A DNA stretch of 1,170 bases from a phage: sequence record OR846254.1, one strand, 5' to 3'. A model generated the notes under the pieces. The model made no database searches, was not told where the DNA came from, and worked only from the letters and a program-made list of their open reading frames with translations. Shown one piece after another: positions 1 to 1,170 of the stretch. Made by a program: the position numbers and the translations under genes. Every line of letters begins with the position of its first letter. Positions within the stretch are counted from its first letter, which is position 1.

Positions 1-1170
1 AACCGGCCACCACCACGTTCAGGATTAATGCACCTGCGGTACCCGCCACGATTGAGCTGACACCGGGCTATTTTCAGATAACCGCCACGCCGCATCTTGC
101 GGTTTATGATCCGACGGTACAGTTTGAGTTCTGGTTCTCGGAAACGCGGATTGCGGATATCAGGCAGGTTGAAACCACAGCCCGCTACCTTGGCACGGGG
201 CTGTACTGGATAGCCGCCAGTATCAATATCAAACCGGGCCATGATTATTACTTTTATATCCGCAGTGTGAACACCGTTGGCAAATCGGCATTCGTGGAGG
301 CTGTTGGCCAGCCGAGTGATGATGCATCCGGCTATCTGGATTTTTTCAAAGGAGAAATCGGGAAAACACATCTGGCCCAGGAGCTGTGGACGCAGATTGA
401 TAACGGTCAGCTTGCGCCGGACCTGGCTGAAATCAGGACGTCCATTACGAATGTCAGCAATGAAATCACGCAGACCGTCAATAAGAAACTGGAAGACCAG
501 AGTGCAGCGATCCAGCAGATACAGAAGGTTCAGGTTGATACAAATAATAACCTGAACAGCATGTGGGCAGTGAAGCTGCAGCAGATGCAGGACGGACGCC
601 TTTATATTGCGGGTATCGGTGCCGGTATTGAGAATACGCCAGCAGGAATGCAGAGTCAGGTGCTGCTGGCGGCAGACAGGATTGCGATGATTAATCCTGC
701 GAATGGCAACACAAAGCCGATGTTTGTTGGTCAGGGCGATCAGATATTCATGAATGAAGTGTTCCTGAAATATCTGACGGCTCCCACCATTACCAGTGGC
801 GGCAATCCTCCGGCATTTTCCCTGACATCAGACGGAAAGCTGACCGCTAAAAATGCGGATATCAGTGGCAGTGTGAATGCGAACTCAGGGACGCTCAACA
901 ACGTCACGATTAACGAGAACTGTCAGATTAAGGGGAAACTGTCAGCCAACCAGATTGAAGGCGATATTGTCAAAACGGTCAGCAAGTCTTTCCCCCGCAC
1001 GAGCACTTATGCCAGTGGCACCATCACGGTAAGAATCAGTGATGATCAGAAGTTTGACCGGCAGGTCATGATACCGCCAGTGTTATTCCGCGGTGGTAAG
1101 CATGAGAATTTCAACAGTAATAACCAACAGTCATACTGGTATTCAACCTGCCGGTTAAGAGTGACCCGCA
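1..1170 (+). CDS. J: Phage host-specificity / tail-tip attachment protein J (lambda gpJ family), internal fragment truncated at both ends by the window; codons are in frame 3 (first complete codon nt 3-5, last nt 1167-1169)
   Basis: Frame 3 is open across all 389 codons (chance of no stop in 389 random codons is about 1e-8), while frames 1 and 2 hit stops within the first 60 nt. The translation contains long motifs I recognise from lambda gpJ and its prophage homologues: [109 protein letters not shown], and FDRQ....P..FRG. No ATG with a ribosome-binding site and no stop codon lie in this frame, so both gene ends are outside the window. Family assignment is from recalled sequence, not a database search. 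Confidence 0.9.
3..329 (+). other. Conserved lambda-J-like block (aa 1-109 of the window translation), ending in the [35 protein letters not shown] motif; probably the end of a beta-rich (fibronectin-III-like) domain of the tail tip protein
   Basis: High apparent identity to recalled lambda gpJ sequence over [52 protein letters not shown]. The composition, with alternating aromatic and aliphatic residues ([18 protein letters not shown]), suits beta strands. The domain assignment is inference. Confidence 0.5.
330..569 (+). other. Central block that appears divergent from lambda J (aa 110-189), including a Gln/Asn-rich segment with predicted coiled-coil character: [33 protein letters not shown]
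   Basis: This stretch ([76 protein letters not shown]) does not match what I recall of lambda gpJ at the equivalent position, whereas both flanks do. Polar Q/N/K/E residues alternate with periodically spaced hydrophobics (I, V, L, A). Confidence 0.4.
570..920 (+). other. Second conserved lambda-J-like block (aa 190-306): [17 protein letters not shown]...[86 protein letters not shown]
   Basis: Near-identical to recalled lambda gpJ motifs ([55 protein letters not shown]), with only scattered substitutions. Confidence 0.55.
921..1169 (+). other. Start of the distal, receptor-recognition portion of J (aa 307-389), which appears divergent from lambda; truncated by the window end
   Basis: From [86 protein letters not shown] onward only isolated anchor residues (ENC, GDIVK, FDRQ, FRG, a second Cys) match my recollection of lambda gpJ. 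In lambda the C-terminal portion of J carries the LamB-binding host-range determinants. Confidence 0.45.

Follow-up and report, generated by a model that had tools for sequence, protein, structure and literature searches.

A fragment of a lambda-like J gene combines a phage-21-type shaft with a receptor-binding module of the phi330/A8 type

Introduction

Which bacteria a lambda-like phage is able to infect is determined by the receptor-binding end of its tail protein J. The specificity region of J comprises residues 960-1132, and natural J homologues form lineages that are set by correlated indels at positions 1012, 1048-1049, 1077-1078 and 1107 (Maddamsetti et al. 2018, PMC6646904). The mechanism by which lambda J triggers infection was described by Ge & Wang 2024 (PMC11101478), whose domain naming is followed here for the tail tip fiber region.

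Among the relatives of lambda, receptor data are available for several J alleles. The native receptor of phage 21 is LamB, and the change I1025T adds the use of OmpC (PMC11336670). The long-tailed Stx2a phage phi330 (vB_EcoS_phi330, PV189401) comes from an EHEC strain of clinical origin. Of 54 Keio outer-membrane mutants it lysed 53, among them lamB732, ompF746 and fhuA766, and spared only ompC768; supplying the ompC mutant with an ompC plasmid restored the plaques (PMC12502783). A8 is one of two gpJ chimeras reported by Brodel et al. 2024, in which residue 964 of lambda gpJ is the fusion point for the C-termini of natural gpJ variants. The screen used recipients that lack lamB, and tests were made in a lamB ompC double deletion that was complemented with 23 OmpC variants. 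A8 delivers DNA efficiently via the OmpC proteins of MG1655 and EDL933; its delivery into lamB-deleted cells is OmpC-dependent, which means that lambda particles were retargeted from LamB to OmpC. The chimera 1A2 recognises the OmpC of EDL933, but not that of MG1655 (PMC11338833).

Here, we analyse a stretch of 1,170 nucleotides of phage DNA (sequence record OR846254.1), which is named the window in the following. A sequence-only reading of this DNA had recognised a J-like protein whose distal part diverges from lambda. We consider it very probable that the window is a fragment of J, that the gene is a mosaic, and that it carries an OmpC-binding module of the phi330/A8 type.

Results

Frame 3 of the plus strand is open over 389 uninterrupted codons, without a start or a stop. 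It is the only end-to-end open frame in the window; the remaining listed ORFs are short and nested inside it on different frames. The encoded protein is collinear with residues 704-1063 of lambda J and with residues 704-1092 of phage 21 J. In aa 1-306, 74% of its residues are identical to those of lambda J, against 46% in aa 307-389, and the lambda J chains of the PDB were matched at E = 6e-147. Pfam matches were judged against the curated cut-offs, and PF24489, PF09327 and PF12421 all scored above them in the window (Table 1). The Phage_Tail_Tip region corresponds to the central straight fiber, which runs to the receptor-binding domain. The match to PF12421 is confined to profile positions 16-65 of 135, as the domain is interrupted by the end of the window. 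The closest protein in a collection of 5.8 billion is 98% identical (P0002); in this near-identical protein, a Pfam scan additionally matched PF24421 and the full-length PF12421. In all close matches, the gene is named J, host specificity protein, central tail fiber or gpJ. The near-identical phage and prophage loci that were examined share the gene order L-K-I-J-lom-side tail fiber gene (stf). The open frame, the three J-specific Pfam domains, and the gpJ annotation and tail gene context of the matching loci thus identify the window as an internal-to-distal fragment of J, the gene for the tip attachment protein (central tail fiber), from a lambda-like siphovirus or prophage whose host is Escherichia or Shigella.

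Table 1. Features mapped on the window, in nucleotide and residue numbering of the window.
Feature	Position (nt)	Residues (aa)	Strand	Evidence
J-like tail tip attachment protein, ORF fragment	3..1169		+	Translation; alignment to six J proteins; gpJ annotation in matching genomes
Ig_J_second, second Ig-like (FNIII-type) domain, PF24489	39..347	13-115	+	E = 7.9e-40, 135.6 bits, cut-off 27
Phage_Tail_Tip, PF09327, tail tip fiber region	507..893	169-297	+	E = 2e-31, 109.1 bits, cut-off 22
Conserved junction motif, 21 residues	834..896	278-298	+	Identical to lambda J 953-973
Receptor-binding module, phi330/A8 type, first 91 of ~159 residues	897..1169		+	Alignments
Exact DNA match to the J genes of phi330 and of the O157:H7 PV15-279 prophage	915..1170		+	Longest exact suffix match
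Ile codon in GDIVK, equivalent to phage 21 I1025	966..968	322	+	Mapping; PMC11336670
Loop PRTST(Y), site of the four-residue deletion versus lambda	999..1013		+	Indel mapping; variants among 120 database proteins; PMC6646904
Ig_GpJ_C, PF12421, receptor-binding Ig-like domain, N-terminal part	1002..1166	334-388	+	E = 4.7e-12, 46.6 bits, cut-off 26.2
Hairpin of 10 residues, phi330 E953-S962, with the five-residue insertion versus lambda	1104..1133		+	Mapping; alignment; PMC12502783

The top score in the protein search belonged to the 'Host specificity protein J' of Shigella sonnei (P0001, 608 aa). It was set aside, since its C-terminal allele is a different one and its score is inflated by an internal duplication of ~200 shaft residues. 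The receptor module of this protein (NENCRVLGKL...RDSRAPERWPSG...) is of the WGPS2 class and resembles that of the chimera 1A2 (PMC11338833).

The junction motif, which ends with NANSGTL, is the final conserved stretch ahead of the exchangeable receptor-binding module. Immediately downstream, at aa 299 (nt 897), the protein begins to diverge from lambda. At the DNA level, identity to lambda amounts to 92-95% over nt 781-900 and to 40-58% over nt 901-1170. The divergence therefore appears as a sharp breakpoint, as at a recombination boundary, and not as a gradual drift. The sequence-only reading had let the divergent region start at nt 921, which is slightly late, and had stated that only sparse anchors are kept. 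The divergence as such is real: over nt 921-1169 (aa 307-389; lambda 982-1063), 36 of 78 residues (46%) are identical to those of lambda J, with 9 gap columns. As about half of the residues are still identical, the sparseness was slightly overstated. The anchors named in that reading all exist in both proteins, namely ENC (aa 305 of the window, residue 980 of lambda), GDIVK (320 and 995), FDRQ (351 and 1030), FRG (362 and 1041) and the second of two cysteines (307 and 383 in the window, 982 and 1057 in lambda). The C-terminus of the gene had also been placed correctly beyond the window, which lacks the last 68 residues. The close identity to lambda J 974-1132 that marks a lambda-type LamB-binding module was not seen; identity is 46-49%, and there are three indels.

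On the two sides of the junction motif, the window resembles different phages. Over nt ~61-800, it is 95-100% identical to phage 21 and to strain 14EC001, and 55-87% identical to the O157 prophage. Over nt ~849-1170, it is identical to the O157 prophage and to phi330 save one synonymous base at nt 914, and its identity to phage 21 is 50-88%. Natural recombination joints lie around the junction motif, the identity switch being located at nt ~800-850, and so does lambda residue 964, at which the engineered chimeras were fused (PMC11338833). To judge from these comparisons, the gene is a recombinational mosaic, in which a phage-21-type shaft and a receptor module of the phi330/A8 type are joined within the conserved linker. 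The best whole-window match in complete E. coli genomes is 95.1% identical over the full length (megablast). A search of species-representative genomes with a 120-base exact pattern that spans the junction gave 0 matches.

Further sequence differences were observed within the shaft. Compared to lambda J, the helical shaft region contains an insertion of 28 residues (nt ~402-488, aa ~134-162), which is common to phage 21, PhiR70_1, Chlobot, 14EC001 and the O157 prophage; in this region, only 15-35% of the DNA is identical to that of lambda. Nucleotides 1-60 differ from the rest of the shaft: they are 83% identical to the O157 prophage, 77% to 14EC001 and 63-68% to phage 21, PhiR70_1, Chlobot and lambda, and the encoded protein has 12 window residues in place of PASVSFRIAAPA. 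This pattern points to another recombination joint close to nt 60. Just 5' of the junction motif, aa 276 (nt 826-831) is a Ser within FSLTSDGK. This is a private change by two bases (nt 828 and 830); the counterpart is a Pro (FSLTPDGK) in the six aligned J proteins, in P0002 and in the A8 chain.

The 91 module residues inside the window are 100% identical (91/91) to those of phi330 J and of the J protein of the O157:H7 PV15-279 prophage. Identity is 98% for A8 (89/91) and also 98% for PhiR70_1 and Chlobot, 79% for phage 21, 66% for the WGPS2/1A2 type, 51% for 434 and 49% for lambda. Nucleotides 921-1170 occur with at least 99% identity in 719 complete E. coli genome records and with 95-99% identity in a further 783 records, mostly in prophages of Shiga-toxin-producing strains. 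A tblastn search with the inferred module of 154 residues found 44 phage records with at least 95% identity. These carriers include many long-tailed Stx1a- and Stx2a-converting phages, YYZ-2008, 2H10, Turner, Chlobot and PhiR70_1. The PhiR phages reportedly originate from Brenes & Laub 2025. In the same search, phage 21 (~80%), Stx2 phage 1717 (77%), WGPS2 (61%), 434 (45%) and lambda (43%) formed separate classes. The divergent region is thus a common, discrete and already characterised allele, and not an unknown variant. Furthermore, the indels that characterise the phi330/A8-type module versus lambda are present in the window and coincide with the lineage-defining hotspots of J (PMC6646904). 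The divergence of the window is an instance of this already described lineage pattern.

In the O157:H7 PV15-279 locus (L001), the region 3' of the tail fiber genes (8772-11463) contains an IS1 transposase, a gene for an OspG-family effector kinase, pseudogenes and a truncated ompW. The truncated ompW and the effector kinase gene lead to the conclusion that this prophage resides at the ompW site and carries effector cargo.

Among the rival explanations, the one that survives best holds that the window stems from a decayed, non-inducible prophage; J would then be without a working fiber, and its specificity without present function. This is unlikely. In its favour, a matching E. coli genome contains a median of 2 and up to 14 J-like places for the whole window, the O157 locus has IS elements and pseudogenes just 3' of its tail genes, and a related protein from Shigella sonnei contains an internal duplication. 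However, all 389 codons of the window are unbroken, its distal DNA is identical to that of the infectious phage phi330, and phages with the same or a near-identical module have been isolated as inducible (phi330, PhiR70_1, Chlobot, Turner and 2H10). The window copy is probably expressed in a functional phage.

The 68 residues beyond the window were deduced from a survey of the 120 best database proteins, 65 of which contain the exact 91-residue module of the window. A canonical tail of 68 residues (...AGISIS), which includes the hairpin ANNWTP, is identical in 55 of these 65 proteins. Nine others differ from it by one or two residues or by a short truncation, and a single one is aberrant. All phages and prophages examined that share the in-window part also share the tail. 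Because 55 of the 65 tails are identical and nine are near-identical, it is plausible to assume, with good but incomplete confidence, that the last 68 residues of the window's protein would be the canonical tail. The second rival explanation concerns this part. It states that an extra recombination joint within the receptor-binding domain has provided the gene with the 3' end of a different allele class, such that its specificity would not be that of phi330 and could not be predicted from the window. That the gene is a mosaic with at least two identity switches within 1170 bases fits this idea, as does the one aberrant tail; the uniformity of the other tails argues against it, and the correlated evolution of indels across the specificity region suggests that this region is inherited as a unit (PMC6646904). 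Taken together, a foreign tail is very unlikely, and the canonical tail is assumed in the following.

Compared to lambda, the window allele lacks four residues (SSVD, 1011-1014) and contains five additional ones (QQSYW) ahead of the second cysteine; a third indel, the deletion of the single residue R1103, lies beyond the window. The four-residue deletion is located in the loop PRTST, whose homologous counterpart in lambda is the host-range hotspot around residue 1012 (PMC6646904). This loop also contains the sole in-window polymorphism among natural copies of the allele: of the 120 best database proteins, 65 have TST and 38 have TNS, which is the form of A8, at aa 332-334, while TRT and others are rarer. 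The five-residue insertion is part of the hairpin E953-S962. In an AlphaFold3 model of phi330 J and OmpC, this hairpin points into the OmpC barrel; the second hairpin ANNWTP, which is outside the window, is placed on the barrel rim (PMC12502783).

Two candidates for the determinant of OmpC usage were rejected. The hairpin E953-S962 was dismissed as a sufficient determinant, since it is identical in the LamB-using phage 21. Residues that discriminate between the receptors must therefore be sought elsewhere among the differences from phage 21. Over aa 299-389, these differences are 19 substitutions, which cluster at positions 1030-1038, 1047-1053, 1058-1060 and 1087-1092 of phage 21. Likewise, the I1025T route by which phage 21 gains OmpC does not apply, as the window retains the Ile.

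Solved structures were searched with the module, and chains named 'A8 gpJ 713' were found in the PDB entries 9wca and 9wcb, which contain a 99% identical module. In the A8 chain, the upstream part is lambda J and is followed by window-type sequence right after ...NANSGTL. A PDB search with E. coli OmpC identified three chains annotated as 'Outer membrane porin C' in 9wcb. A LamB query of the PDB returned neither 9wca nor 9wcb, and 9wcb does not list a maltoporin sequence. Judged from the co-deposited chains only, this indicates that 9wcb is a complex of A8 gpJ and OmpC. Our literature search found no publication for 9wca or 9wcb. The OmpC of chain A in 9wcb differs from that of K-12 in stretches of the extracellular loops, for example by the loss of four residues after SGEG and by the gain of four others, VING. 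In another entry, 9wso, the maltoporin sequence is the same as in the lambda J-LamB complex 8xcj, and no chain is related to the J receptor module. The printed DNA of A8 agrees with nt 800-1170 of the window in 355 of 372 columns, and most of the mismatches look like OCR dropouts. A receptor-screen preprint from 2026 was discarded as a source of receptor data, since it covers GpJ domains of the virulent Drexlerviridae type and not the window allele.

Because the identical module of phi330 and the near-identical module of A8 need OmpC and not LamB, the comparison supports OmpC as the receptor of the window allele, with LamB being dispensable; the underlying experiments are in the literature, both for the identical allele and for A8, which is 98-99% identical. 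Published experiments on this very allele thus support the altered receptor that the sequence-only reading had predicted. That reading had, however, treated the receptor as an open question, although it is known for this allele from work of 2024-2025. Moreover, its general logic, according to which divergence from lambda implies a different receptor, is unsafe: as judged from separate comparisons, the allele of phage 21 lies at a similar distance from lambda to that of the window, and it still uses LamB. That the window allele likewise still uses LamB, its divergence being neutral or adapted to LamB variants, is extremely unlikely: the similarly distant phage 21 J (79-81% identical) with its identical E953-S962 hairpin does so, but phi330 with the identical module lyses a lamB knockout, the ompC knockout being the only one on which it fails, A8 was selected on lamB-deleted recipients and is OmpC-dependent, and 9wcb pairs A8 gpJ with OmpC and not with maltoporin. 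Phage 21 had initially been considered the nearest characterised relative, which would have implied LamB; this assignment was dropped once identical and near-identical alleles with receptor data were found.

If the triggering mechanism of lambda is transferred to the J protein of the window, which seems justified by homology, the following sequence of events would be expected. The receptor module would form an Ig-like domain, three copies of which sit as a trimer on the fiber tip. The bottom loops of the three receptor-binding domains would insert into the porin trimer from its extracellular side; the porin is LamB in the case of lambda and would be OmpC here. Binding to the porin would spread the receptor-binding domains apart. 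This spreading would tighten and twist the straight fiber, and the helical shaft would flip. Finally, the twist would be passed up the fiber, such that the tail tip opens and the DNA is ejected.

Discussion

The allele found in the window is already known at three levels, which are its lineage (2018), its receptor (2024 and 2025) and a deposited structure with OmpC. What the window adds is one further mosaic carrier of a widespread OmpC allele. The assignment of alleles to receptors helps to predict the spread of prophages, including those of Shiga-toxin phages. Receptor-typed alleles also help to choose modules for engineered phage particles, and the allele of the window is already in use as an engineering part. 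A word of caution applies to such predictions: a receptor should be predicted by a match to an experimentally typed allele class and not by the distance from lambda alone, as is shown by the LamB-binding allele of phage 21, which lies at a similar distance.

There is a slim chance that the choice between TST and TNS, together with the phage-21-type shaft and the private Ser at aa 276, fine-tunes the range of OmpC variants that the phage accepts, and hence the E. coli lineages that it infects. In this case, the window would be a previously unsampled recombinant with a host range of its own.

Among the characterised proteins, phi330 J is the closest in the receptor module: it shares 91/91 module residues with the window, including TST, its DNA is identical over nt 915-1170, and its gene is located upstream of lom, as in the near-identical loci. 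Upstream of nt ~840, in contrast, DNA identity is just 59-77%, and the window has a phage-21-type shaft. The A8 module and the window allele, whose tail is inferred, are identical in 179 of 181 residues over a longer stretch, as determined by the PDB chain search. Unlike the window, A8 is an engineered fusion to residues 1-964 of lambda J, and it contains TNS where the window has TST.

Phage 21 J (OL657228) and the window share 94% of their residues in aa 1-306, where both have the insertion of 28 residues; in the receptor-binding domain, phage 21 J shows the same indel pattern versus lambda and an identical hairpin of the E953-S962 type. Its module, however, is only 79-81% identical, with the 19 substitutions between aa 299 and 389, and its receptor is LamB. 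Since the allele of phage 21 differs by only ~20%, has LamB as its receptor and is a single mutation away from the use of OmpC, the choice of the receptor can turn on few residues in the clade of phage 21 and the window.

Lambda J (NP_040600; PDB 8iyk and 8xcj) shares with the window the domain architecture and the junction motif, and its C-terminal Ig-like receptor-binding fold is recognisable in the window allele by sequence (E = 5.5e-47). In contrast, identity past the motif is 46-49%, the 28-residue insertion of the shaft is missing in lambda, and the receptor is LamB. Phage 434 J (OL657227) belongs to the same protein family as the window allele and also has OmpC as its receptor, whereas its module is only 49-51% identical and follows a different indel pattern. 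Phage 434 is therefore an independent class of OmpC-binding alleles.
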